Below are positions 4,321 through 33,421 of a stretch of 64,000 nucleotides of DNA, in pieces. The translations under genes and the position numbers were made by a program. How positions within the stretch are numbered: position 1 is the first letter of the stretch; each line of letters opens with the position of its first letter. Under the pieces are notes generated by a model. It was not told the origin of the DNA. It worked only from the letters and a program-made list of their open reading frames with translations, and ran no database searches. The stretch is from a virus: positions 64,001-128,000 of the IMG/VR virus record IMGVR_UViG_3300024054_000269; one strand, written 5' to 3'.

Positions 4321-7300
4321 GCATAGATCTATCAAGAGTTCTTTTAGAAGGGATAAGAGTAAGCACTGGCAACAATGCTTTTACATTTCCTTCTAATGTA
4401 GTCATCTTATCTGATTCAACGTTCCAATCATCATATTTAGATAGAGTTGAATATTGTGTCATAGCTGACAGTTTGAATTTATCATCTTTATCACTTGAAA
4501 TTGCAGATCCAAATTTGATATTTAAATGGACTAAAAACGAGTCAACCGCCATAAGATTTGACTACGATAGTTTTTCTGGTAGGTGGATGCCTATGCCTGG
4601 TTCTTCACCAGAAGAATTAGGTATGATTAGTAACACAACGAGATTGATTGTTCAAATCCCAGATCTAAATTTGACAAATTCGCCATTTAGTATTTACATA
4701 GGCAATCCAGTAAGAATAATAACCTTTTCAGTCCAACTTGTTAACACTCCAACAAATTTTACAAGTTTAACAACTGGAAATGTGCAAATCGCACAAGACA
4801 CGGGTGAGTTAAATTTCGCACAAGTAGATGTGGATCAATTTGCCGGACAAATTGTTCTTAATACGAGACAAGGTTTTTTTGATAGGTCAAGAACGACTGG
4901 TAAGATTGGATCTTTACCTGAATCATCATCTGTATCATACAATTTATTTTTAAACCCAAGACCAGCATCTGGACAGCGACCAAGAGTTCGTATAAATTAT
5001 AGAGATCACCTAACTCCTATCGAAGTTCCAAATGAATCATCATTCAGTCCTCCTGCATCTGGAACTTTTCAGTGGTCAGCTGACACCGGAAAACTTGCAT
5101 TCTCTGCTAGTGATATTAATAGTTTTAAATCTGAGTTTGTTTATTACGATGGAGTTTTTAACGGTTCTTTTCAATTAGTTAGAACTTCGCTTGGCCTCCC
5201 AACTGTTGGTTATCCAAGTATAACATTTAATGTTCCGTTATTTGTTGGTCTAGAAACTACTGACAGATATCTGATATTTGCGGAAAAAACTGGTGAGCCA
5301 AGAGTTTATTTTAAAATTAGACTGCGTGATTCAACAACACAATCACTTAGCGCGCCACCATCCGGAACAGTTTTGGTAGACACGTCAAATGGTAATGTGT
5401 ATTTAAAATCGTCTAATGTTTCTAATTTTTCTTCTTATACATTCTATTATTTAGATACGATTGGAGTTGTTGAAAATGGTGTTGGCGTACAATTTTTCAG
5501 AAGCGGCGCAAATTCTGGTTCAACATCAAGTGTTGGCGATTTTACTATAAAATATCACGTTGACAATCAATTCATAGGAAACATTTCATCTGATCTCATA
5601 TTTTTACCAACTATTCCGATCAACAATTCAAACCTTAGTTTTACAGTTAAAAAGGGAACTCTAGGTGGGACCTTTATTGGGGATTTAAAAAATAACGTAG
5701 ATTCAACACAACAAGGATCTGGTTATTTACCAGATTTTGATAACAAGAAAATAAACATCAGCTTTAGAAGGACTTCTAATATTGAACTTGATAAAGAATC
5801 ATCTATCATAAAAATTGAACCAACTGTAAGCCAATTCGGGCTTGAAATAGAAATTGACGGTTCAGCTTCTGAACCGGGCGTTGATTTTGATTTTAACCCT
5901 GATGCTGGATTTTTAGAATTCACAAAATCAATCGGTGAAAACAATCCAGAAAATGTGTTAAATGTATCTGGGGCAACTTCTTCACCTAACATATTTATAG
6001 CCAACGATGCAGTTTTTCCGATCAATGAGACGATAGGAAGTTTTTTGTATATAAATTCTGGTTCCAACGCTGGTATTTATAAAATAGTTGCTTTTATTTC
6101 ATCTTATCAAGTTTTAGTTTCGCCAAATTTTCAAGTTTTTGGGTCAGATACGGCCGATTTTAGAAAAAATGCTGATGTAATAGCTGATAGATTTTTTACT
6201 GATTTGCTTACGCCATTGAAAAAATTCAAACTCGAAAGAGCAAATAGCATTAATGATATTTTTACGCAAATCGACAATTCGTTGTTTACTTTGTTGGCTA
6301 CGAATGGGCAGGTTAACCTAAAAAACAGGGCTAAACCTGGTGAAGTTTTCAAAGTTATGTATGTTTATTTACAGTCTGATGACGAAGGCGTTACGACAAC
6401 GCCACAAAACATAACGGAATTTGCTTCTTTTCCGATTCGACAGGAAATTGCGACAACAACTATTGGGTCGAATACTGTAACTTTCAACCAAAATAATAGA
6501 CAAATATCAGATACGCAAATCAACGTCTATGTCAATGGTGTAACATTAGACACAACTCAATTCGAACTTAAGAATAACAATGAAATTGAATTATCAGAAC
6601 CTATAACAAGTTCTGACACGACTGTTACCGTTACTTATTTTGTAGACGAAGCCGTTGGCGGTGAAACTTCGTTTACAGTCAAAAATTCGCCAATAGACAT
6701 AGACACACCAAGTTTGACAGCCGGATCTAATCAAATATTGTTAAATGGTAATCAAACAAACATTATCCAACCTGGTTCGCCGGTTTTATTTGATAACGAA
6801 ATATTATTAATAACATTAGATACAACATACGATTCAACTAGTGACATAACAACAATTACATTTACTACAAATGCTCCGTCTGACATCACCAATCCGATTA
6901 TTCAAATTGCAGAATCAATTTTTGGATATACTGAACAAGACGCATCGACATTTGATGTTATACCGTCCGGTTCTGGATCAATAACTGTCTCTGGTAACAA
7001 CTTATTTAGACCGAATACTGTTATTACAATCAATGAAGATCCGTATTTTGTTATAGGATCAAATTATGACTCAGAAGATAATAAAACAACAATATCATTA
7101 TCTTCTCAAGCAATTAAAAATTACATTTTTCCAACTATAATCAAAACAATTAGACCGATATTTTTATCTGGCAAAGAATTCCAAACGTCAAATGATGCAA
7201 AACTTGACCCTGAACCAATCGTTATTAGAATGGGACAAGGACAAAAAATATTAGTACCAAATGTTGATTATACAATATCAGATGGCGGGCTTATTTCTTT

Positions 7301-20560: not shown

Positions 20561-20962
20561 ATGGTCGAAAAATTAAGCATAACAATTCCAGAATCTGTCA
20601 CTATAGGAAATGTTGGTTCCATATCATTTTATGAATTTATACGATTTCTTTGTTCTAGAGATCAAAGATTTCTTGGGTCGGCAAACAGAGTCAGAATGGG
20701 CGTAAAAATAGAATCTTTGTTTAAAGATAAAGAACCTGGTTCTATTGTTGACGTTGAACAAAGTGATTTTAATTTATTGTTAAAAGTTGCGACAGAACCA
20801 GCATGTGGGTATCCAAGATTAGACATAATAAGACAAAATGGTCAACGTGATACTGTGTTAACTGATAGAGCAATTATGGTATATGTTGAAGCCATTGAAA
20901 ATGCTGAAGTTGCTGAAGTTGCTGAAGTAGAACAAATAGAAAATAACGGAGGCGATGTTTAA
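20561..20962 (+). CDS. Hypothetical protein, possible fibre assembly chaperone (133 aa)
   Basis: Small ORF directly after a fibre gene; role inferred from position only. Confidence 0.45.
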   Translation: MVEKLSITIPESVTIGNVGSISFYEFIRFLCSRDQRFLGSANRVRMGVKIESLFKDKEPGSIVDVEQSDFNLLLKVATEPACGYPRLDIIRQNGQRDTVLTDRAIMVYVEAIENAEVAEVAEVEQIENNGGDV

Positions 20963-23742
20963 TGCCATCCGGCGGATGGGGCGGTTTATTCGGCGGCGGG
21001 CCTTGGGGAGGCTCTGGCGGCGTGCCTGGTGTTGAATTTGTAGCCCATGTTATAAGTTCAACAGAATTGCGTTTAAAATTTGAAGCACGCGTTGAAGACG
21101 ACGGGAATCCGACAGACATAACAAACTACATTTTAGATTCATTTGAGCCATTTGGTACATATTATTTACCTAATATTTTGTCAGTTAAATTCGATGACCC
21201 TGGAAATAGAGCTATAATAATAACCTTCGAAAAATCATTAACTTTGAATAAAACTTACAGAATACAAGCTTTAAATTTGAAGACCGCAATTGGTGGATTA
21301 GACATATCAGGATTACCGCATAGTTTTTTATCAACAGTTCCAGACCCGCCAAGGGCGCTAACATCTCATATTAGTGGCCTTGACACGATAGACATTGTAT
21401 TTGATAGATCAGTTGGTCCAACTTCGTCTTCAGCAACTGCCTCCATAAGACCGTCTGGTTCAACTGGACCTGGAACATTACTAACTTTAGTTCCATATGT
21501 TGCGTCTATTCCTGAAGATCATATCAGATTTACATTAAATCCATTAATGGTATCGGCAAATTCTCATGAAATTGTGTTTTCCGATGTTGTAGATGAATCA
21601 TTAAACGTTGGTACAAATGAAGTTGATTTGAATTTGAAGTTAAGGGCTCCATCACCGTTTGGGTATTCTGAGATAACTCAAGCACAAATCATAGGAGCAA
21701 CTGTAAACAGAGTCAACAACGATTATTTAGTTGGAACTTATTTATTAGTTTATTTTAATGTTCCAATGCTTCCTTCTGATATCACAAATTCTGCAAATTG
21801 GTCAATTTCAACACCAGGTTCTAATGTTATTCCTGATACAAGCAATACACTACTGCTAAATCCTTTAGTAGACCCGCTAGTGAATGTAGCAAATGAATTT
21901 AAAACAAATTTTAATAGTCACATAATTAAAACTGGCATACATGTTACAAAAGAATTTACTAAAAATTTGACGTTTGCTGATTTAGTTGATGAATCAAATC
22001 TCATAACACTTTCGAATGATTTAAAGAGAAAATATGAAGCACATAGAACACAAAGTGGCGTTCATCCATTTGTGTTAACAAGATACAACGATTTGTCTAA
22101 TATAATAACATCCACAGATGCATATGATGTTGCTTCTTCGATAATTTTATTAAATGAAATTAAAACAAAATATAATCTGCATAGAGTAAACACTCTATTT
22201 CATATCGTTGCTGATACAACAAATATCGTAACTGCTGCTAACGCGGTTGACATAACAACGGCGGCGGCTTTGGCTGAACAAATAAAAAATAAACTAAATT
22301 ACCATAGAACTCAATCTGGTGTACACACATCAGATGATACAATAAATGTTGTTACAGCAGTTGATGCAGCATTATTTATAACTTCACCAACGGCAATTGA
22401 TACACAAACATCAATCGATATATGTAATGAAGCACAGAACAAATACTTGGCTCATTTGTCAAAATCTGGTTTTCACGTATTTGAAGATACAATTAATACG
22501 TATATACCACTTGTAGTTAATCCTGGGAATGTCCCGTTAGCCAGGGCAATTTTTGATCAATACCTGTATACTAATTTTAACATACACATAACTGATAGTT
22601 ATCAAGTAACAATAACTAATATAAGAAATGAGAATTTTGTACCATATGATCCATTTTATGACGTAGCAGAAGTTCGTGTTGATGTATTTGATACTAACAC
22701 ACCTTTTAATATCGAAGTAACGGCAAATAATTTGAACAGTTCTAGCATAACAAATCCAGCAAATTATTCTGGGTCTATTGGCATAGATTCTGCTCGTTCT
22801 ATTTCTAATCAATTTACCAGTAATTTAATTTCAAAAAATGAATTCAATATCAGATTTGATAAGAAAACACTTGCAATGAATATTGACCAGTTTGTTTTAA
22901 CTGATCCATCGATGTTAACCACTCCAATTTTATCGATTCAACAACGTTCTTCAGTACCAAACGCATTTTTTATGCTTGATCATTTAGCTGATGTATATGA
23001 AATACACAGAAACGCTGTTATACATTATACACCAGATGTTACAAATATAATAACTACTCTTGATAGACCATATTTGCCAGATTTGCAAATTATTATTAAT
23101 TCATCTAACCTCATAAAGGACATTATTAATGAACATTTTCAATCATCGAGTCATTTTTCACCGGATCAAAACTTAATAACGGCCCCGAATGCAACTGATT
23201 TAGATTCACTAATTGTTTTGTTATCAGACATGGAAACAAAATATTTAGAACACATAAAAAATCATATAGCACATAATGGAGAATCACTAGTTTATTATTC
23301 AACAGGTCTTTTTGATTCAATTTCTGTAGCTTTTCCAGATTTAGTAGACGATGAAGAATACACATTAAATTTTGATGCAACAACATCTGTCGTTGATAAC
23401 GCTGAAAACACAAAATTCGAATCGAATTTGGTTACTTCTGCGTCTTTCTTCGGAGTAACCCAGCCACCAGCCATAGCACCAGCCCTATCAGAAATAGGCA
23501 TTAAACCAACTTATGAAGAAGGAAAATATCTAACACCAGATTCTGTTTTGGGGTTTATTTCAAAACCATTAAGACAGAAAGAATTGACTTCGTCTAATAT
23601 TCAAATACCAAGTGTTATAATTAAAAATTTTACCTGGATAAGTAATAGGAGAATCGCAACGTTTATAACAAACATGCAAAATTCAACTTATAATTTTACT
23701 ATAACTGGCATAACTGATAAAGCTGGAAACGACATCTTGTAA
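20962..23742 (+). CDS. Virion protein with Ig-like (Big/SbsA-type) domains and 8-9 His-motif helical repeats (926 aa)
   Basis: N-terminal GGWGGLFGGGPWGG; ELRLKF/IDIVFDRSV/LLVYFNVPM beta-domains; repeats such as NDLKRKYEAHRTQSGVH and NEIKTKYNLHRVNTLFHIVAD. Confidence 0.7.
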   Translation: MPSGGWGGLFGGGPWGGSGGVPGVEFVAHVISSTELRLKFEARVEDDGNPTDITNYILDSFEPFGTYYLPNILSVKFDDPGNRAIIITFEKSLTLNKTYRIQALNLKTAIGGLDISGLPHSFLSTVPDPPRALTSHISGLDTIDIVFDRSVGPTSSSATASIRPSGSTGPGTLLTLVPYVASIPEDHIRFTLNPLMVSANSHEIVFSDVVDESLNVGTNEVDLNLKLRAPSPFGYSEITQAQIIGATVNRVNNDYLVGTYLLVYFNVPMLPSDITNSANWSISTPGSNVIPDTSNTLLLNPLVDPLVNVANEFKTNFNSHIIKTGIHVTKEFTKNLTFADLVDESNLITLSNDLKRKYEAHRTQSGVHPFVLTRYNDLSNIITSTDAYDVASSIILLNEIKTKYNLHRVNTLFHIVADTTNIVTAANAVDITTAAALAEQIKNKLNYHRTQSGVHTSDDTINVVTAVDAALFITSPTAIDTQTSIDICNEAQNKYLAHLSKSGFHVFEDTINTYIPLVVNPGNVPLARAIFDQYLYTNFNIHITDSYQVTITNIRNENFVPYDPFYDVAEVRVDVFDTNTPFNIEVTANNLNSSSITNPANYSGSIGIDSARSISNQFTSNLISKNEFNIRFDKKTLAMNIDQFVLTDPSMLTTPILSIQQRSSVPNAFFMLDHLADVYEIHRNAVIHYTPDVTNIITTLDRPYLPDLQIIINSSNLIKDIINEHFQSSSHFSPDQNLITAPNATDLDSLIVLLSDMETKYLEHIKNHIAHNGESLVYYSTGLFDSISVAFPDLVDDEEYTLNFDATTSVVDNAENTKFESNLVTSASFFGVTQPPAIAPALSEIGIKPTYEEGKYLTPDSVLGFISKPLRQKELTSSNIQIPSVIIKNFTWISNRRIATFITNMQNSTYNFTITGITDKAGNDIL

Positions 23743-26700
23743 TGGGAACTATATCATTTACCGGTTTAAGTTCTGTTTCTGATAGAACTTTGTTTACAAA
23801 CAAAGGTCCTATCGTAAAAAGACCGCTATCACTTCTTTCCGGGTCAGATTTAAGAATTGTTTCGGAAAACGAAATTGAGATATTGTCAGGATCATTTACA
23901 TCATCAAATGTTGGACAAATAATAACAATTTCAGGGAGTTTGAATAATCGAAATGATGGGACTTTCACAATAGATCAAGTAAAAAATTCAACACGTTTAG
24001 TGTTAAAGAATTCGTCGTTTGAACTTATAAACGAAACTGACACGATCGAAAGTATTATTGATTTAGCGAATGATATTCGTAATAAATATGAATTACATAG
24101 AATTCAAGATGAAGTTCACGGATCAAATGATACAACAAATATAATATTCACTGCGATTGCAGTACCAACATTGGCAAATGCAATAATTTTGTTGAATGAT
24201 ATAAAAACTAAATTTAGTGCGCATATAATAGACATATCATCCCCTAGTCCAGGGGAGCCAACAGTCCACTTAGAAGCAGATGTAGAGAATACCGTGTATT
24301 TGCCTGATGCTGATGACTTGGCATCGGCGTTACAACTGGTTAATGAATTAAGAAAGAAATACTCGTTACATAGACAAAGTAACATCTATCATCAAAACGT
24401 TGATTCTGCAAATGCTGTTACAGTTGATAGAGTAATACCAACAGTTGGTACCTATCCGGGTTCTTTAACTGGGCCATTATCTTGGGTATTAAAAAGTCCG
24501 AGAATAGGGGAATTTGCGGACGTTCCGGAAGACGTTGATGTTTATGTTAATTCTACAGATGCTAGTGTTGACGCAGTGTTCGGATTATTAGGAGCTGTGG
24601 TTTTAACTTCAAAACCAACTAGTAGTGATACAGTTGAAATTGATTATGATTATTTAAACAACCCAGCTGTTCTGTTTACTGGTTTAAATTTTCCAGGCTT
24701 CACATTTAATCAAGCTGGCAACCACGGAATTGGGGGCTTGCCAAGCCACAAATACAGAATGCGTGCGTTTTTTATAGACCCAGAAAATCTTCCAAACCCG
24801 CATGGCGTTTCTTCTCCGTTTGCGCCGAGACTTGTTGGTTGGAGATATAAAGGATTTGAAAGGGCGTATACGGCATCTTTAAACGACCCAAATTTATTTA
24901 GACTAAATTCGCCAGCAAACAAAATACTTTTTCCAGTTGAAGAAGACCCAGCATTTGAAACGTCCGTATCATATGATCCAACTAATTTACCACAAAATGT
25001 AACAAATCCTTGGACCTCCAACGGATTTGGAACCGTTTACATATCAGGTAAACGTCTTATTATAATAGATGCCGATGATGGTTCAGGAACTGAGAGTCTG
25101 CCACCGTTTTTTAGCAAAGAAATAAATATTGACCCACCAAGCATCGTTTCAGCAGCTTTTAGAACTGAATTATCAAACGAAGGTCTTTTGCTTGACGGAG
25201 CTTTTACTGGTGTTGGGTTTGGGTTTTCTGATGGTAACAATGTAGCATTAATTGGGTTCATAATAACATCACAACCCGCTACAAACTTATCATCAGCTAT
25301 TTCACTAACAAATGAAATAAAAACCAAATTTAACTCCCATGTAATAGAGCCAACTGTTCATTTTGTTAATGATACACAAAATATTGTAGATCTCGTAAAT
25401 GCTACCAATTTGTCTCAACTATTAATTATTTTGAATTCGTTAAAGGCGGCTTTTAATTCTCATATTGTTAAAGTTCCAGAACATGCGATATCAGATACAA
25501 CTGATTTGGTAACGTCGCCAGACGCAGGCGATCTATATTCTGAAGAAATTTCATTACAACAAGCTATAACATTAGTAAATGAACTACGAGATAAATACAA
25601 TACACATCTGTCTCAAATAATAACATCAACTAATGTCCATCAAGTTAACGATACTATAAACGTTGTTCCGGACGTAAAACAAGTAGGAATTTTAACAAAC
25701 AGGGGACCATGGGAATTCGGAGAAAATTGGAACTCATATGCAATAGATTTCACAGAGACAAAATCATACAGGATAGCACGAAACATAGACGGAGGTGTTT
25801 CGTTATACTTGAGTGGTATGATAGATCCGATTGCGACGGTTGAAGCATCTGAACTACCGTCGATTTCAAATTTGAATGCTAAATTTGATCCTATACAACA
25901 AGTGTTTTTTGGTGCAATTAGTAAAGAGTCAACGTCCACAAGCAGGTGGTCATTTGTAAGAACTGTTATAACACCATTAGACCCAGATAGAATCAGCCGC
26001 AATAAATCCATAGATTATCAAGCATCAGTAACACCAGAACTTGATACAACAGCACCTTGGGTACCTGTAGGATTAAATGGATTTGAGAGAGTAAATAGTG
26101 GAATTTTATTGCTAGATTCAACTGCGTCAGCAAATACAAATGAACTAGATTCATTTGGTTTGAGCAGCGGTGCCTACAGGGGATTTTTAAGATTTGAACC
26201 AACTCAAACTATAAGAACATCGACTGTAATAGAATTTAGGACAAAAATCGACTATTACACATTTGGGATAAACAATAGATCGGCTGGTGTGTATTTAGAT
26301 GATAAGAATCTTCAGGTGCATTTTTCATTTTTGCAATATTCACCGTCAGCTCCAACAACGATTGGTAGATCTGAACTTTATCCGATAATACTTGGTGACA
26401 ATTTGTTGTTGAGGATAAATAACGGACAAATCATAACAATAACATTTGCTGCCACAGATACAACTGCTGCCACAGTTGCAGCCAAAATTAATTCTACCAC
26501 TGGTGTACCATCCGGTTTTGCATCGTCAAGCAGCGGGAAAATTAAACTTACAGGCGTAAATCTTGGTGTAGAGTCATCATTTGAAATTGTTGGCGGTACA
26601 GCTGTTACAAAACTTGGTTTAATTATAGGTAATTATATTGGTTCTGATTCGAACCCAGAGCCAAGAATTTCATATTTTGGTGCCGATTTACCTGATAAGG

Positions 26701-29700
26701 ACAACCCGGTTTGGGTTTCAAGTGGAGAACAAAGAGCCGAATTAATAAACAGGGCGCTTAGAATAACTGATGACAGTGTGACCGATTATCGTTTGTTTGA
26801 TTTGTCAAACATTCTTGTTACTGAGCCTGTACTAAAAGATCCGAATGATTGGAAATTGGACACAAGAATCACAGTTTATTCTTATACGCCTTCTTCTACA
26901 TACATAATTTACGGTTTGTATGTTCCAGTTAAATTTGCCGGTGCATTTATAAATATTGATGAAGGGGTTGGTGGTAAGAACTTAGAACTGCATCTATCTG
27001 TTGATCAGAATGGTAACAAATATGTAACTATTTTGTCGATTATTGCCAGTGCATACATAATAGTTTTTCAAGCACCGTTTAACTGGGATGATGGTCTACC
27101 ACATTCATATAATGTGTATATGAACAAAGCGTCTGGCTTGGTGTTTGTATTAGCTGATGGACAACCTATAAATGATGTTTTATCAGCAACCAATTCATTT
27201 TTGACTTCTGTTTTGAAACCGAGTGTGTCTGGTCCGTCTGTCACATTTGGTTCTGGTAGTATGCCAATCGGTGCAATAGATATAAACACAGCTAAATCAG
27301 TTGTTGATTGGCATTCAGTGGCAGTGTTCAAAGATAGTAAAATAAACGATTCGAATTCTTCTATAAGACGTTATATTGGTTTATATAAAGGTGGAAATGA
27401 GAACGAATTAAGCTCATATTATGTACATCAAATAGATTGGACTTCGTTTCATACATACAGAATAATTAGAAGTCCAGACGATTACGTGTCAATATTCGTT
27501 GATAACAATCCAACGCCTGTTATATCAATTAGTTATGACTCTTTAAGACTTCCATTAGTTAATACGAGTTTCTTGAATGGCATAACCGGTGGAATACCAT
27601 CAATAGCATTTGGATCGTTTAACCCGCAAGAGTTATCAAGAACAGAATGGGACTATGTAAAATATTCGTTGGGCAGAATCATACAAAGAAACAGGCTTGT
27701 GCCAAGGCATCATTTATTAAATTATGCCAATTTGATAACATCACCAGATCACCTTTTCACAAAAGCGCAACACATACATTTTGGTAAAGAAGTCTATTCA
27801 GAAGGAACAGCATCAGAAGAGTTGATAGCTAATGACACAGCTAGCAGTTATACGATTTTAGGAGAAGGAACGCCACCAATTCCAATGACTCAAAATCTTG
27901 AGTCAAGAGGCGGGTTGGTAAAATCAATAACCCAAACTAAGAATATAAACACCGTAGATTTCATTAATTCAAACGGTTTCCCGGCAGCGTTTGAAGACGA
28001 TTCAATAAATGTAATTCTTTCAGAGAATGCCTTTGATTTGTCGACTTCAATAGCATTAGTTAATGAATTAAAATCTAAATTCAATTCACACTTAACTCAG
28101 TATAGAGTCCACGTATCAAATGACAGAATAAATATTGTTGAAATAGACGACGCGTCTGACTTAACAACTGCTATAGACTTAGTAAATTTAATAAAATCAA
28201 AATACGGTTCGCATTTAATTCAATCCGGAATACACACAAACAATGATACAGTAAACATAATAACATTATCTGATGCAACAAATCTTGCCACATTGATAAC
28301 TTTGGTTAATGAAATTAAAATTAAATATGAATCGCATAGGATGCCAATAGTTGCGTTTGCAAATGATTTAAAGTCTAAATTCAATTCTCATCTCACACAA
28401 ACTGGCGTCCATGTTGTAAACGGAACAACTACCGTAACAACACAAGACGCAGCTGATCAATTGTCTGCGTTCGTCTTAATAAACGACGTTAGACAGAAAT
28501 ACAATGAACATTTAGTTGAGATTGGTGTTCACATAACTAATGACACTATAAATTCTTCAATTCTTCCACCTGTAACAAATTTCTCGTCAGCTTTAGCGCT
28601 AGTTAATGAGGTTAATTCAAAATACGATTTACACAGGGCTGACTTAACTTATCATTTGGTTGCTGATACAATCAATATAAATACATATTTCATATCATTA
28701 CTGTTAATACCTGACGTTCATTTGTCAACAGTAATAATAAGACTTGATCCGCCTTCAAGGGTTTTGTACGAAGCCATGAAATTTTACACATTTGCAGAGG
28801 GCGATGTTGGACATTTATTTCCATTTTCAGATGATGAAACACTCCATGTTCATGGCATTTCTTATGCTGGATCTCATTCTTTCTCATATGAAGGTTCTGT
28901 TTTACCGGAAGACGCTGCTGAATTTGCTGTTATAAACTTGGCAAATGACTTGAAATCGAAGTACAACTTACACAGATCACAATTTGGCGTTCATATGAAT
29001 GATGACATATTAAATGTCGTCACAGCTCCAAATTCAACTGACCTATCTTCTGCTATTACATTATTAAATGATATAAAAACCAACTATAATTTGCATTTGA
29101 TAACTGGAAGTGTTCACACAACGAATGACAATGAAAATAAAGCTATAAACATTAATGCAACAGAGTTGTATACGGCTCTTTCATTAGTTAATGAATTAAA
29201 GTCAAGATATGAAGCACACATAGATAGCATAGTTTACCACGTGTCAGTCGACACAACTAACGAAATATCAGTTGAAGATGCACCACCAGTCGCAGATCAA
29301 GGGTGGTTGTTAACAACTGAAGGACCAGGTTCAGCTTCCATATCATTGATAACAGTTGGTCCAACAACTGCGTTAGAATATGGAGCAGTTGGGTCTATAG
29401 AAACTATATATAAGAATAAGAATCCATTGCCAAGTATTGGTAACCAGAATTTTGAAATGTCATTAAGTCTAAGAATCAATGATGTTTATACGGTCGTCCC
29501 AACTTTCGATTCAAGAATTTATGCTGGTTTTACAAGTAAAATGCATGGCGGAATTGCGGCGGCTATTGGATTTGATTCAATAAATAGCGTTCCATATGTG
29601 AAAATTCATGATATGAATAATGATGAAACTGTGTATCGTGTCCCATTTGATTGGGGCGACGGTAATTTCCATTCATATCGTCTTGTAAGGGACATTAACA

Positions 29701-29732
29701 CAAACACAATAGGCCTCGTAATAGACTCATGA
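23742..29732 (+). CDS. Giant virion/adhesin-like protein with four His-repeat clusters alternating with ConA/LamG-like beta domains (1996 aa)
   Basis: 15 copies of N[ED][LI]KxK[YF]xxH-x6-H (a few degenerate). Four copies of a DW-x2-5-H-[ST]-Y-[RN]-[ILV]-like motif (FTETKSYRIAR, NWDDGLPHSYNVY, DWTSFHTYRIIR, DWGDGNFHSYRLVR). Confidence 0.75.
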   Translation: MGTISFTGLSSVSDRTLFTNKGPIVKRPLSLLSGSDLRIVSENEIEILSGSFTSSNVGQIITISGSLNNRNDGTFTIDQVKNSTRLVLKNSSFELINETDTIESIIDLANDIRNKYELHRIQDEVHGSNDTTNIIFTAIAVPTLANAIILLNDIKTKFSAHIIDISSPSPGEPTVHLEADVENTVYLPDADDLASALQLVNELRKKYSLHRQSNIYHQNVDSANAVTVDRVIPTVGTYPGSLTGPLSWVLKSPRIGEFADVPEDVDVYVNSTDASVDAVFGLLGAVVLTSKPTSSDTVEIDYDYLNNPAVLFTGLNFPGFTFNQAGNHGIGGLPSHKYRMRAFFIDPENLPNPHGVSSPFAPRLVGWRYKGFERAYTASLNDPNLFRLNSPANKILFPVEEDPAFETSVSYDPTNLPQNVTNPWTSNGFGTVYISGKRLIIIDADDGSGTESLPPFFSKEINIDPPSIVSAAFRTELSNEGLLLDGAFTGVGFGFSDGNNVALIGFIITSQPATNLSSAISLTNEIKTKFNSHVIEPTVHFVNDTQNIVDLVNATNLSQLLIILNSLKAAFNSHIVKVPEHAISDTTDLVTSPDAGDLYSEEISLQQAITLVNELRDKYNTHLSQIITSTNVHQVNDTINVVPDVKQVGILTNRGPWEFGENWNSYAIDFTETKSYRIARNIDGGVSLYLSGMIDPIATVEASELPSISNLNAKFDPIQQVFFGAISKESTSTSRWSFVRTVITPLDPDRISRNKSIDYQASVTPELDTTAPWVPVGLNGFERVNSGILLLDSTASANTNELDSFGLSSGAYRGFLRFEPTQTIRTSTVIEFRTKIDYYTFGINNRSAGVYLDDKNLQVHFSFLQYSPSAPTTIGRSELYPIILGDNLLLRINNGQIITITFAATDTTAATVAAKINSTTGVPSGFASSSSGKIKLTGVNLGVESSFEIVGGTAVTKLGLIIGNYIGSDSNPEPRISYFGADLPDKDNPVWVSSGEQRAELINRALRITDDSVTDYRLFDLSNILVTEPVLKDPNDWKLDTRITVYSYTPSSTYIIYGLYVPVKFAGAFINIDEGVGGKNLELHLSVDQNGNKYVTILSIIASAYIIVFQAPFNWDDGLPHSYNVYMNKASGLVFVLADGQPINDVLSATNSFLTSVLKPSVSGPSVTFGSGSMPIGAIDINTAKSVVDWHSVAVFKDSKINDSNSSIRRYIGLYKGGNENELSSYYVHQIDWTSFHTYRIIRSPDDYVSIFVDNNPTPVISISYDSLRLPLVNTSFLNGITGGIPSIAFGSFNPQELSRTEWDYVKYSLGRIIQRNRLVPRHHLLNYANLITSPDHLFTKAQHIHFGKEVYSEGTASEELIANDTASSYTILGEGTPPIPMTQNLESRGGLVKSITQTKNINTVDFINSNGFPAAFEDDSINVILSENAFDLSTSIALVNELKSKFNSHLTQYRVHVSNDRINIVEIDDASDLTTAIDLVNLIKSKYGSHLIQSGIHTNNDTVNIITLSDATNLATLITLVNEIKIKYESHRMPIVAFANDLKSKFNSHLTQTGVHVVNGTTTVTTQDAADQLSAFVLINDVRQKYNEHLVEIGVHITNDTINSSILPPVTNFSSALALVNEVNSKYDLHRADLTYHLVADTININTYFISLLLIPDVHLSTVIIRLDPPSRVLYEAMKFYTFAEGDVGHLFPFSDDETLHVHGISYAGSHSFSYEGSVLPEDAAEFAVINLANDLKSKYNLHRSQFGVHMNDDILNVVTAPNSTDLSSAITLLNDIKTNYNLHLITGSVHTTNDNENKAININATELYTALSLVNELKSRYEAHIDSIVYHVSVDTTNEISVEDAPPVADQGWLLTTEGPGSASISLITVGPTTALEYGAVGSIETIYKNKNPLPSIGNQNFEMSLSLRINDVYTVVPTFDSRIYAGFTSKMHGGIAAAIGFDSINSVPYVKIHDMNNDETVYRVPFDWGDGNFHSYRLVRDINTNTIGLVIDS

Positions 29733-30628
29733 ATTTGACTAGATTAACAACTATTTGTAATGATGGTTCCAACATTCTGTTGTTAAATAGCGATTATGAT
29801 AATTATGCAATTAAATTAGATGAATCATTTAATATAATCTCGAAGATCAAATTAAAAAACACCGTTGCAAGCGGATCACTACCGTTTTTTTCTATCAAAG
29901 ACAACACCGGGGTTTGGTTTTCTGACTTAGCATCAAGTCGTGTGTTCAAAATTATTAATGATGAAATCTCAATTTCACTTCAAATTGGCCAAGGTGGTAT
30001 TTTAGGAATAGCTACAACTCCTGATTATTTGTTTGTCGCTGAATTGGGACAAAATGGTATAACAAGAATTGGTTTGTCTGATACAGATAATAGGATTACA
30101 ACTGGCATACAAGCTCAACTTATAAAATTTGATGAATCATCTGGACTTATGTGGTTTGTAGATGCAAACACAAAATCAATTGGCGTCATTGACCCGAATG
30201 ATAAATTTGGATTTTCGTCTATTATTTATTCTATTGAATTAGAAACAACTAATATTTTTGATTTTGTAATACTTGACGCTGAAGTTTGGGTAACAACATC
30301 AAATGGTGTTGTAATAATAAACAAAGCTGAAAGAAGAGTAAACTCACAAATTTTTTTGTCAAAGTCTCAAATATGTTATTTTTCTGGTAACCATAACATT
30401 ATACATAACAGCAATAATAAAGTGTACATATCATTACCACACATTAAATCTTTAGCTGTAATAAATACAGCCACGAAATCTGTAGAAATCATAAATGTTG
30501 GTTTTAACATTGATTTAATCCATTTGTTTAATGGCAAAATATTTGCACTCGATCCATATGCCGATGTTGTGTTAAAACTAGATAGCAATGCTGGTCTTTT
30601 GATGAGTTCTGTGATAGAGGTTGGTTGA
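29729..30628 (+). CDS. Beta-propeller protein, YncE/YVTN/Vgb-like (299 aa)
   Basis: About 40-aa repeats ending in aromatic-hydrophobic strands (GVWFSD, YLFVAE, LMWFVD, EVWVTT, KVYISL, KIFALD). Confidence 0.65.
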   Translation: MNLTRLTTICNDGSNILLLNSDYDNYAIKLDESFNIISKIKLKNTVASGSLPFFSIKDNTGVWFSDLASSRVFKIINDEISISLQIGQGGILGIATTPDYLFVAELGQNGITRIGLSDTDNRITTGIQAQLIKFDESSGLMWFVDANTKSIGVIDPNDKFGFSSIIYSIELETTNIFDFVILDAEVWVTTSNGVVIINKAERRVNSQIFLSKSQICYFSGNHNIIHNSNNKVYISLPHIKSLAVINTATKSVEIINVGFNIDLIHLFNGKIFALDPYADVVLKLDSNAGLLMSSVIEVG

Positions 30629-31362
30629 TGCCTCTTCCAATATTCATAACCCCAATATATCAAACACCAACCGGTGTTGTTCTTGGGCGTGTACCAATTT
30701 CGAGATTTTCTGGTCAACCAATTTCTGGACTGTTGACGCCAGTTACATCGGGGTTGGTCTTTTTTTCACCAGTTTTGCTCGAACAATTACCAAATAATGA
30801 AATAGACTTAGATTATATTAGGGTGGTTGTAAATTCGAATGATGTTTATACACCTCCGGTTGTAGAAAATTCAAGATTGTTCACATTTGGGCCAAATAGT
30901 AGTTCAAGAACGAATCAACCAAAATGGAGAACCCAACCAAAGGAGTATACAGCTATTGGCGGATTGGTTGATGAGACTTTGTTAATTACACTTGCAAATG
31001 ATTTAAGAGCTCAATATGAAGCTCATAGAGCATCAGCTGTATTCCATGTAATAGCTGATGGAATCAATACAATAACATCTCCGGCGGCCGTAAGCTTGGC
31101 AACAGCAACTACGCTTTTGAATGAGTTAAAATTGAAATTTGATCTGCACAGAACACAACCTGGCGTTCATTCAACTGATGATGTAATTGATGAAATATTA
31201 ACGGCAAATGCAGACGGTAACCCATTACCGGCTGCGTTTCTTGCAAATGAATTGAAACTGAAATATAATGTGCATAGAACTGCACCATTAATTCACGTTG
31301 TGAATGATGGCATAAACATAGTGACTGCAGCTGATCCGTCAGTTATAAGTAAACTAATATAG
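30628..31362 (+). CDS. Small protein with a C-terminal triplet of the His-motif repeat (244 aa)
   Basis: NDLRAQYEAHRASAVFHVIAD, NELKLKFDLHRTQPGVHSTDD, NELKLKYNVHRTAPLIHVVND. TGATG coupling to the upstream gene. Confidence 0.75.
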   Translation: MPLPIFITPIYQTPTGVVLGRVPISRFSGQPISGLLTPVTSGLVFFSPVLLEQLPNNEIDLDYIRVVVNSNDVYTPPVVENSRLFTFGPNSSSRTNQPKWRTQPKEYTAIGGLVDETLLITLANDLRAQYEAHRASAVFHVIADGINTITSPAAVSLATATTLLNELKLKFDLHRTQPGVHSTDDVIDEILTANADGNPLPAAFLANELKLKYNVHRTAPLIHVVNDGINIVTAADPSVISKLI

Positions 31363-31377
31363 AAGGTAATGTAGGAC

Positions 31378-32031
31378 ATGTTTAAAGACAAATTCAAGAA
31401 AGCACAAGATTTCGTTCGTATGGCCTTGCATTTTAAACACCAAGATGCCTATCACTGTAGAGGTATCAAAGGCGAAATTTTTTGGGAAATGAATGATACT
31501 AAGACCGGTGAAATTACAAAAGGTAAGCTAAATAATATTGTTACTTTGGATGCTAGTATCCTTATAGCCAGACTTATGAAGTCAACTGCTATTCCATATA
31601 CGTCTGAACCAAGATTTGGTATTTATGCTTTGGCAGTTGGAACTGGAAATGTTGGGTGGGACCCACTTGACCCACCAGCTGGCACATCCACACAAAGATC
31701 GCTCGAAAATGAAATTGCTAGAAAACAAATAGCATCAACTGATTTCATAGACGGAACTGGAGCAATTAGTGGGATACCAACAAACGTAGTTGATTTTACA
31801 ACCACATTTTCTGAGTCAGAAGCAGTAGGAACGTTGGTCGAGATGGGTTTGTTAGGCGGTGATGTTGACACAAACATGGCAATACAAAACCCAATAATTC
31901 CGCCAAACGGACCATATGATGCAACAGTCGATGTTACTGGAAAAGACACGCTTGTTAATTATTTGACATTTGGTGCTATCACTAAACCGGCGTCAAGTAC
32001 TTTCAGTTGGACTTGGCGTTTATCATTTTGA
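31378..32031 (+). CDS. Tail-collar / fibre-attachment-like protein (217 aa)
   Basis: NIVTLDASILIARLM, ALAVGTG, SLENEIARK, TLVEMGL and ITKPASSTFSWTWRLSF match the pattern of P2 gpH N-terminal / tail-collar-fibre-like proteins. Confidence 0.7.
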   Translation: MFKDKFKKAQDFVRMALHFKHQDAYHCRGIKGEIFWEMNDTKTGEITKGKLNNIVTLDASILIARLMKSTAIPYTSEPRFGIYALAVGTGNVGWDPLDPPAGTSTQRSLENEIARKQIASTDFIDGTGAISGIPTNVVDFTTTFSESEAVGTLVEMGLLGGDVDTNMAIQNPIIPPNGPYDATVDVTGKDTLVNYLTFGAITKPASSTFSWTWRLSF

Positions 32032-32736: not shown

Positions 32737-33038
32737 CAGATCATGGTCCATATCGTACAGCAGCAATTGTTGTGCGACACAGCAGGCCAAAGCGAACCAT
32801 ATCAGGTCGATTTCGTTCGTTGCTTCGTCGTTTTGCTGTTCGTTGGTATGGAAAATTTCTTATTAGATATCCAGTTAAATGCCCGACATGCAACAAACGA
32901 AGTTGGAATCCGCACGCTATCCGTCGCAATGGTCCTGGCTTGCTTTCAGCTGGTGATTATTCAATAAGAGCTAATCGTTATCGGTGTGGTCATGGTGGCA
33001 TGCGTGTTGGACTCAGTGGAATGGTCAGATTAGGATGA
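32733..33038 (+). CDS. Small basic protein with CxxC (101 aa)
   Basis: GTGA overlap upstream and ATGA overlap downstream; CPTC motif; Arg-rich. Confidence 0.5.
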   Translation: MTDHGPYRTAAIVVRHSRPKRTISGRFRSLLRRFAVRWYGKFLIRYPVKCPTCNKRSWNPHAIRRNGPGLLSAGDYSIRANRYRCGHGGMRVGLSGMVRLG

Positions 33039-33421
33039 AACGCGCTTTTTACTTTGGTTCTTTAGGTTACGGTCACTTTTTGCACGACGATACTGGCAGA
33101 AGCCGATTGAAGCCAAAAGTGCTAGACGTCAACTTCCCATGGGAAATGGAACTATTAGACACAGGCCTACTCAAAAATGGTAAAGTGCCAGACTGGCCAG
33201 ATGGCCGTGTCTTCTGGACATGCGGTAAAGATGCACAAGCTCACCTTTGGTTTGCTTTCTTTTGGTGGGATCGTTCAGGTGACAAACGTCCTGGTTCAAA
33301 TTCTGGTTTTTACGTAAATGGGTTTAATTTTAATGAACGTAACGAAGCATTTGAATTTGCATGCAAAGAATGGCCGTCAGTTATCAAACGTCAAGAATTT
33401 CCATTAATGTTGCAACCATAG
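33035..33421 (+). CDS. Trp/Phe-rich hypothetical protein (128 aa from ATG 33035)
   Basis: ATGA coupling indicates a start at 33035 rather than 32984. Motif FWWDRSGDKRPGSNSGFY. Confidence 0.6.
   Translation: MKRAFYFGSLGYGHFLHDDTGRSRLKPKVLDVNFPWEMELLDTGLLKNGKVPDWPDGRVFWTCGKDAQAHLWFAFFWWDRSGDKRPGSNSGFYVNGFNFNERNEAFEFACKEWPSVIKRQEFPLMLQP

Follow-up and report, generated by a model that had tools for sequence, protein, structure and literature searches.

A 64,000-nucleotide (nt) stretch of viral DNA (bases 64001-128000 of the 182-kb IMG/VR virus record IMGVR_UViG_3300024054_000269; the whole stretch is called the window below) was found to encode 27 copies of a repeat of 41 amino acids (aa), distributed over three proteins of 926, 1996 and 245 aa. 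We consider it probable that this unit is one third of a single-chain three-helix domain, which serves as an optional accessory of virion proteins and has a His-capped metal site. The fold is the part of this reading that is predicted with high confidence, three tandem repeats being modelled as one intramolecular helical bundle with pseudo-threefold symmetry. The source record is a fragment of a huge phage, because CheckV rates its 182 kb as about 40% complete. The repeat had been noticed earlier in a note made from the sequence alone, which is referred to here as the original prediction.

The 41-residue repeat and its arrangement

Each unit consists of an amphipathic helix ending in His (His1), followed by x6-His-x3-Asp-x2-Asn (this second His is termed His2) and a return segment, and at most places the period is exactly 41 aa (123 nt). 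Copies were counted and scored in bits with a profile built from 19 of them (A2). The 1996-aa protein contains 15 copies, the 926-aa protein nine (five strong and four degenerate ones, the latter read by eye) and the 245-aa protein three. This count, by profile and by eye, bears out the original prediction, which had seen about 26 copies and had placed them within about 30 nt of our coordinates. All three open reading frames (ORFs) that it named exist, and the lengths of 926 and 1996 aa stand; the small one, given as 244 aa, has a TTG start and encodes 245.

The arrays comprise 3, 3, 6 and 3 repeats in the 1996-aa protein, 6 and 3 in the 926-aa protein, and 3 in the smallest carrier, i.e. each array of the window is a multiple of three when the degenerate copies are included. 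The profile was also run against 1.84 billion proteins, taken as representative clusters, with a threshold of E 0.001. It retrieved 1166 representative proteins at this threshold or better (101 of them at 1e-30), which are 148 to 3370 aa long and have up to 27 copies in one protein. The modal run length in this family is three (158 of 410 runs), and exactly three repeats are present in 68 of 181 family proteins. Because the window arrays and the modal family run agree in this respect, we treat the set of three repeats, the triad, as the unit; the original prediction had likewise observed that copies mostly come in threes.

The detection of the repeat is not circular, because the 245-aa protein, used as a lone query, matches other carriers with E values from 1e-12 to 1e-23. 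In a profile scan of the window no other reading frame scored. A regular-expression match at 27684-27806 was rejected as a chance hit, since it scored only in a profile that had been seeded with it and not with A2. Judged by their sequences, the copies are old, because their mean identity is 48% at the nucleotide and 32% at the protein level and both His codons are in use (CAT/CAC 12/6 and 9/9 at the two His positions).

Both His are invariant in all 19 aligned copies. Among 1159 family repeats, His1 and His2 are each conserved in 100% and Asp in 98%, so that these three positions are the best conserved ones, as had been predicted; the Asn three residues after Asp follows with 86% and the helix Asn with 85%. 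The real substitutions over these 1159 repeats number two at His2 and about 20 at Asp. Within triads, losses of His should be correlated if a single site required all six. Triads with 0, 1, 2 and 3 His defects were found 85, 51, 18 and 1 times, compared with 81, 59, 14 and 1 expected from a binomial distribution, but nearly all of these defects are alignment truncations, which deprives the comparison of weight.

Predicted fold and the His/His/Asp cap

The triad of the 245-aa protein was modelled with AlphaFold2, using a 28-row triad alignment (residues are numbered from nt 30940). The model is a single compact domain with a predicted local distance difference test score (pLDDT) of 94.1 and a predicted template modelling score (pTM) of 0.88. 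As assigned by DSSP, it contains three helices of 18-19 residues (12-30, 53-70 and 95-112), each of which leads into an irregular segment of about 22 residues. The only strands (5-10 and 135-139) lie at the two chain ends, and must pair with each other, because the model has no others. With paired end strands and this secondary structure, the termini would therefore be adjacent, each repeat would return to the end of the domain from which it set out, and the helices would be parallel. We propose that three units in one chain form a compact module of about 123 residues, in which three parallel amphipathic helices would be related by a pseudo-threefold axis and an irregular segment of about 22 residues would return the chain to the base after each of them. 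Since the start and the end of such a module would coincide, it could be plugged into a loop or strung between domains.

A second AlphaFold2 model, of the six-repeat stretch of the 1996-aa protein (pLDDT 88, pTM 0.73), has six helices and agrees with the first. Both models favour the intramolecular pseudo-trimeric bundle of three repeats that had been put forward in the original prediction. Within the stretch, the third repeat (28272-28343) is reduced to the helix and His1, without a return segment, and in the model it enters the fourth helix after a break of two residues (helices 96-114 and 117-132). The same junction between triads 3 and 4 is present in the orthologue P0039, at about 61-66% identity. 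Because it is conserved there, this shortening is, on comparative grounds, not damage. We read the hexad as two bundles joined end-on: with the third return segment deleted, the chain would run straight into the next bundle, and successive modules would form a rod-like structure.

Both models were compared with 48,161 chains by VIA-align, which gave only matches with Z < 7, and a Foldseek search against PDB and BFVD gave no match at E 0.001 or better. The closest architectures were a gp41 bundle made of one chain, the core of which has three parallel helices (Z 6.5 and 6.9 for the two models), and the BARA domain, in which three repeats are arranged with pseudo-threefold symmetry (Z 5.7 and 6.7). 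In the gp41-5 bundle (3o3x) and in BARA of Vps30/Beclin 1 (3vp7, 4ddp), three central helices have return elements packed outside them, as in the module predicted here, and BARA shares with it the three tandem repeats round a pseudo-threefold axis. The values (Z 5.0-6.9, root-mean-square deviation 3.0-3.8 Å, identity 3-10%) are below the level of kinship, and these proteins differ from the module in their biology and in having no His cap.

The hydrophobic positions of the repeat profile (6, 9, 13, 16, 20 and 23) form a 3-4-3-4-3 heptad pattern, by the phase of which His1 occupies position d, in the core, within the last turn of the helix. In the modelled triad, the first helix has its His at residue 29 and the next His is at 36; repeats 2 and 3 are alike. 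Between His1 and His2 the loop can be longer by 4 to 8 residues, with spacings of x10 to x14 in the window (x4 to x14 overall), unlike the His2-x3-Asp spacing, which is fixed.

The invariance of the two His, their position at the helix end, the heptad phase and the analogy with Gp45 of phage phi11 suggest that they probably clamp a metal ion. The three His1, by their core d position, would converge on the bundle axis at one end of the domain. His2, seven residues further on, would lie in the cap, and the six His could together form one octahedral site for Fe or Zn, in which Asp, four residues after His2, would be a second-shell partner orienting this residue. A metal held in this manner would staple the three caps to each other and stiffen a small, extracellularly exposed domain with little hydrophobic core. 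We also put forward, more tentatively, that the module may be a portable, single-chain form of the His6 metal cage, a site so far seen only where three fibre chains meet.

Gp45, the receptor-binding protein of Staphylococcus phage phi11, holds an Fe3+ ion at the C-terminal end of a bundle of three helices, on its three-fold axis (PMC4901313). The ion is coordinated octahedrally by His42-x7-His50 from three chains, the residues at position i+4 of each His belong to the second shell, and the site was described by the authors as a lock that keeps the helical segment rigid (PMC4901313). Both this protein and several carriers of the module are phage tail proteins. In both, the first His stands at the C-terminal end of a coiled-coil helix, the second follows 7-8 residues later in a non-helical segment, and a polar or acidic residue occupies position i+4 of a His; six His from three-fold related copies would, according to the prediction, also be common to both. 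The differences are that in Gp45 each of three chains gives one His pair, with a spacing of x7 and one site per protein, whereas in the module a single chain would give three pairs, with a spacing of x6 (variable to x14) and up to five modules per protein. No sequence homology to the Gp45 stem was detected when the 245-aa protein and the repeat profile were compared with PDB chains.

By this analogy, the His-x7-His site of Gp45 appears to be the nearest solved precedent, closer than the HxH iron sites of the T4 gp37 tip, P2 gpV and phi92 gp138, in which paired His on a three-fold axis provide six ligands per ion (PMC11705849, PMC4901313). The original prediction had drawn its comparison with the latter group. 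These sites are real (PMC11705849), but they are not the best analogue, as they are β-helical and intermolecular: H-x-H lies in an intertwined triple β-helix of three chains, whereas the module has H-x6-H in a helix and a loop of one chain. The HxH motif of the triple β-helix was not found in the repeats, whose spacing is x6 (x4 to x14) and whose structure is helix and coil by DSSP.

The known phage His6-Fe sites are all inter-chain, and the genes considered here lie downstream of a baseplate J gene, at a position typical of fibres. Both facts would suit trimeric fibres, in which each repeat pairs with its equivalents in two sister chains to give a long coiled coil in which each repeat has its own His6 site between the chains, comparable to that of phi11 Gp45 or T4 gp37. 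Such an arrangement seems to us highly improbable: the arrays come in threes, an uninterrupted coiled coil would not need return segments of 22 residues, a pLDDT of 94 was obtained for the intramolecular model, and the module is present in proteins of the sheath and major-tail types, which are not trimers. A homotrimer-built site of the Gp45 kind is thus not what the model, the arrays and the sheath- or tube-type carriers point to.

The same single-chain domain could also do without a metal. His1, His2 and Asp would then form a buried network of hydrogen bonds or helix caps, or a pH-sensitive latch that keeps the return segments against the bundle and could loosen when the His are protonated near the cell surface. 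His clusters are pH switches in other viral helical bundles, the fixed His2-x3-Asp spacing would fit a His-Asp pair, and the fold prediction itself needs no metal. We nevertheless regard a metal-free cap as unlikely, since metal ligands typically show such conservation (about 100% for both His in more than 1000 diverged repeats), and the solved helical analogue with the same layout, phi11 Gp45, binds Fe3+.

Carriers and distribution of the module

The coordinates of the carriers and of their triads are collected in Table 1. The first array of the 926-aa protein varies among orthologues, with 3, 5 or 8 repeats detected. In at least 20 clusters of orthologues of the 1996-aa protein, triads 1 and 2 are located at fixed sites, and the C-terminal array ranges from 3 to about 17 repeats. 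The domain that follows triad 5 recurs in stand-alone proteins of about 300 aa (P0013, P0029), which consist of one triad and this C-terminal domain (alignment A3). The orthologues of the 245-aa protein (P0005-P0008) show 50-57% identity, and a syntenic copy of its gene is present in a related huge-phage contig (L020).

Table 1. Repeat-bearing genes of the window, their triads and the baseplate gene upstream of them
Feature	Coordinates	Strand	Basis or score	Remarks
926-aa carrier	20962..23742	+	ORF, profile matches	Nine repeats in three triads
926-aa triad A	21859..22236	+	47, 37, 61 bits	Repeats 21859-21975, 21979-about 22113 (displaced Asp), 22117-22236
926-aa triad B	22240..22626	+	61, 56 bits; third repeat 0.2 bits, read by eye	Repeats 22240-22359, 22387-22506, about 22519-22626 (degenerate: helix and His1 kept, His2 and Asp lost)
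926-aa triad C, divergent	22948..23310	+	Regular expression and sequence; profile only 4 and 14 bits	His spacing shortened in all three repeats: H-x5-H-x3-D twice, then H-x4-H-x-H-x2-E
1996-aa carrier	23742..29732	+	ORF	15 repeats in five triads between non-repeat domains
1996-aa triad 1	24033..24425	+	56, 23, 53 bits	Middle repeat with 8-residue insert between His1 and His2
1996-aa triad 2	25272..25667	+	62, 44, 41 bits	Third repeat with spacing H-x10-H
1996-aa triad 3	28026..28343	+	66, 61, 30 bits	Third repeat shortened (see text)
1996-aa triad 4	28344..28688	+	51, 55, 54 bits	Directly 3' of triad 3
1996-aa triad 5	28905..29270	+	59, 51, 54 bits	Followed by C-terminal domain
245-aa carrier	30625..31362	+	ORF	TTG start; N-terminal domain of about 110 aa and one triad
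245-aa triad	30967..31329	+	53, 58, 60 bits	Modelled
Baseplate J-like protein, 1153 aa	14126..17587	+	Pfam PF04865 Baseplate_J, E 1.9e-8, above cut-off	

The original prediction spoke of three virion-module proteins. This number was too low for the genome as a whole, which has a fourth carrier 24 kb upstream of the window: an ORF of 1665 aa (G000:C1:36332-41326; 33-5030 in L009) with six copies, i.e. two triads. Over its C-terminal 594 residues it shares 58% identity with a protein that weakly matches Phage_sheath_1C (through its last 90 residues, E 9e-4, below cut-off), and on this similarity the 1665-aa protein is likely a sheath. The first repeat of its second triad and the first repeat of the 245-aa protein have the motif AHRASAVFH in common, and no other region of the genome matches the 245-aa protein as well as this part of the 1665-aa ORF (49% identity), which hints at an exchange of modules between genes.

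Several other features of the carriers were noted. The N-terminus of the 926-aa protein is rich in Gly and aromatic residues (GGWGG..GGGPWGG, 20962-21030), and the very similar GGYGGGPYG starts the 245-aa orthologues P0005, P0006 and P0008, but not the 245-aa protein of the window; these segments may represent a shared N-terminal attachment peptide. In the 1996-aa protein (29270-29732 and about 26800-27600) several segments were seen by eye to end in motifs resembling W/F-x-D-G-x-F-H-x-Y-R, which may mean that jelly-roll (lectin-like) domains recur between the triads; Pfam gave no match for these putative jelly-roll segments. In residues 1553-1647 of P0039, about 93 residues separate a His1 from the repeat detected next, a length that would fit the insertion of a further domain into the His1-His2 loop.

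Carriers identified elsewhere extend the range of the module. A member of 173 aa is encoded directly 3' of a major capsid gene, and one of 322 aa occupies the slot where siphophages keep the major tail protein. Among 96 members, six of the named PHROG matches were to major tail protein, two each to tail sheath and head-tail adaptor, one each to baseplate wedge and virion structural protein, and ten to "head fiber"; the last ten correspond to the repeat itself, and the other PHROG matches are to families without a function name. Phage_sheath_1C of Pfam was found in two members. By these matches, all nameable carriers are virion proteins. A reading of the motif as the 2-His-1-carboxylate site of an enzyme was rejected in view of the presence of up to 27 copies per protein and the structural nature of the nameable carriers.

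The module is thus carried by several unrelated virion proteins, and its presence and number vary among orthologues. This supports the view, drawn from sequence comparison, that it is a portable, optional accessory structural domain of virion proteins, and it agrees with the mobile structural domain of tail proteins that the original prediction had envisaged. In the genome analysed here, it is present in two giant proteins and one small one downstream of baseplate J, as well as in the putative sheath; in other phages its carriers include proteins with matches to the major-tail, baseplate-wedge, head-tail-adaptor and tail-sheath families.

The same prediction had also offered the repeats as a docking code, by which the three window proteins would recognize each other during assembly. 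A motif common to neighbouring genes of one module is what such a code would produce. We give this idea hardly any credence, as the module occurs in single proteins of unrelated phages (beside the capsid gene and in the major-tail-protein slot), and the domain is predicted to be complete in itself.

Ig-like, FN3 and similar accessory domains of virion proteins (e.g. in T4 Hoc and the C-terminal domain of lambda gpV) are beta-sandwich folds. Like the module, they are small self-contained domains found on sheath, tube, head decoration and fibres, and their presence and number vary in orthologues. They have no invariant His/His/Asp, whereas the module is predicted to be a bundle of helices, and its strongly conserved polar residues are all in one cap. 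Accessory domains of this class have been reviewed in part (PMC7602432).

A distribution as promiscuous and as variable in copy number as that of Ig-like domains would also be expected if the module were mainly a binding device instead of a brace. It could be a weak adhesin for host or environmental surfaces, or a metal carrier or bait (a "Ferrojan horse"), which would be compatible with metal binding. There would be many sites per virion if the sheath carries two, and the idea of phage tails as iron carriers has been published (PMC11705849). The conserved residues cluster at one cap with no variable binding face, and the surface outside the core motif is poorly conserved; we therefore consider such a role improbable.

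The module was found to be absent from the named families of the databases searched. Neither Pfam nor PHROGs contained a family for any of the three window proteins, NCBIfam gave noise only, and a sequence search of the PDB with the 245-aa protein and the repeat profile yielded no matches beyond two chance-level rows. For 33 close relatives there is neither a precomputed Pfam domain nor a name that is informative; the cluster names are all hypothetical or unnamed, except for one automatic label, and the ESM Atlas returned only unnamed viral clusters (0.75-0.77). The single database model found to touch the motif is phrog_6994 ("head fiber protein", 67 profile positions), which matches the repeat helix in 10 of the 96 members (best E 1.4e-8) and the window proteins only at E 0.006-0.1; its length corresponds to about one repeat, and its description mentions neither a repeat nor a domain. 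In tblastn searches of 50,697 GenBank phage records, the triad and an eight-repeat member had no match, and the 173-aa member had one, in a metagenome-assembled phage, where the protein is annotated as hypothetical; no cultured carrier was found in this set. Literature searches revealed no description of the repeat. Sequence comparison with Pfam, NCBIfam and the PDB thus gave no match and the fold comparisons none of significance, so that the module is an unnamed domain. The original prediction had not recognized a named family either, and the profile search that it proposed brought to light no already described repeat with a known non-metal function.

Nearly all genes of the window are on the + strand. 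The baseplate J gene places the genes downstream of it in the baseplate/fibre part of the tail module, and the three repeat-bearing ORFs come within 3.4 kb of it. Wedge and fibre genes usually occupy this position in contractile-tail phages. A Pfam or PHROG match was obtained for two of ten neighbouring proteins scanned, and the other eight had none. Directly 3' of the 245-aa gene, a 217-aa protein (31378-32031) matches phrog_5417, a family of unknown function (E 8.5e-17), and at the equivalent place L020 has two tandem 217-aa ORFs (5771-7131). Further downstream, a patch of 45-47% G+C (32800-33300) lies within a region of 30-39% G+C and contains only GTG-start ORFs with odd translations rich in Arg, Trp and Cys. 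It has no Rfam match, and the whole window is likewise without Rfam RNA families; the patch may be a small foreign gene or non-coding DNA.

Weight of the evidence and significance

Several observations weigh against the interpretation of the repeat as part of a metal-capped accessory domain. All fold matches are below the level of helical noise (Z < 8, with a helical background that the tool puts at up to about 13). AlphaFold2 may be prone to pack the helices within one chain also where, in reality, they assemble between chains. The parallel orientation of the helices and the convergence of six His are deductions from the lengths of the loops, the secondary structure and the phase of the heptad, and for all members of the family the metal site is one that we infer. 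The 926-aa and 1996-aa carriers are putative fibre or baseplate proteins, assigned by gene position only. Runs of 1, 2, 4 and 5 repeats are common family-wide; at least some odd run lengths reflect shortened or degenerate copies, and those in the window's own proteins were resolved in this way. Finally, in a register test of the triads, identity was 0.388 in register and 0.371 when shifted. Because this excess is weak, the movement of whole triads is not proven.

To conclude, the analysis defines an unnamed domain, carried by about 1166 sequence clusters, whose fold is predicted with confidence and is not significantly matched by any solved structure. Among 50,697 GenBank phage records its one match is a metagenome-assembled genome, and it may serve as an annotation marker for virion proteins in huge phages whose structural genes are otherwise unrecognizable.

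If the His cap binds metal, a metal site built from three chains would be convertible into a module of one chain. Should the single-chain cage prove true, any virion protein, whether trimeric or not, could be equipped with metal-stapled rods, singly or in numbers. The two modules of each putative sheath subunit, together with the nine in the three window proteins, would then amount to very many metal ions per particle, which would bear on phage tails as a pool of bound iron in natural waters. The 245-aa protein provides a small natural construct, in which both the metal stapling of virions and the carriage of iron by phages could be tested.

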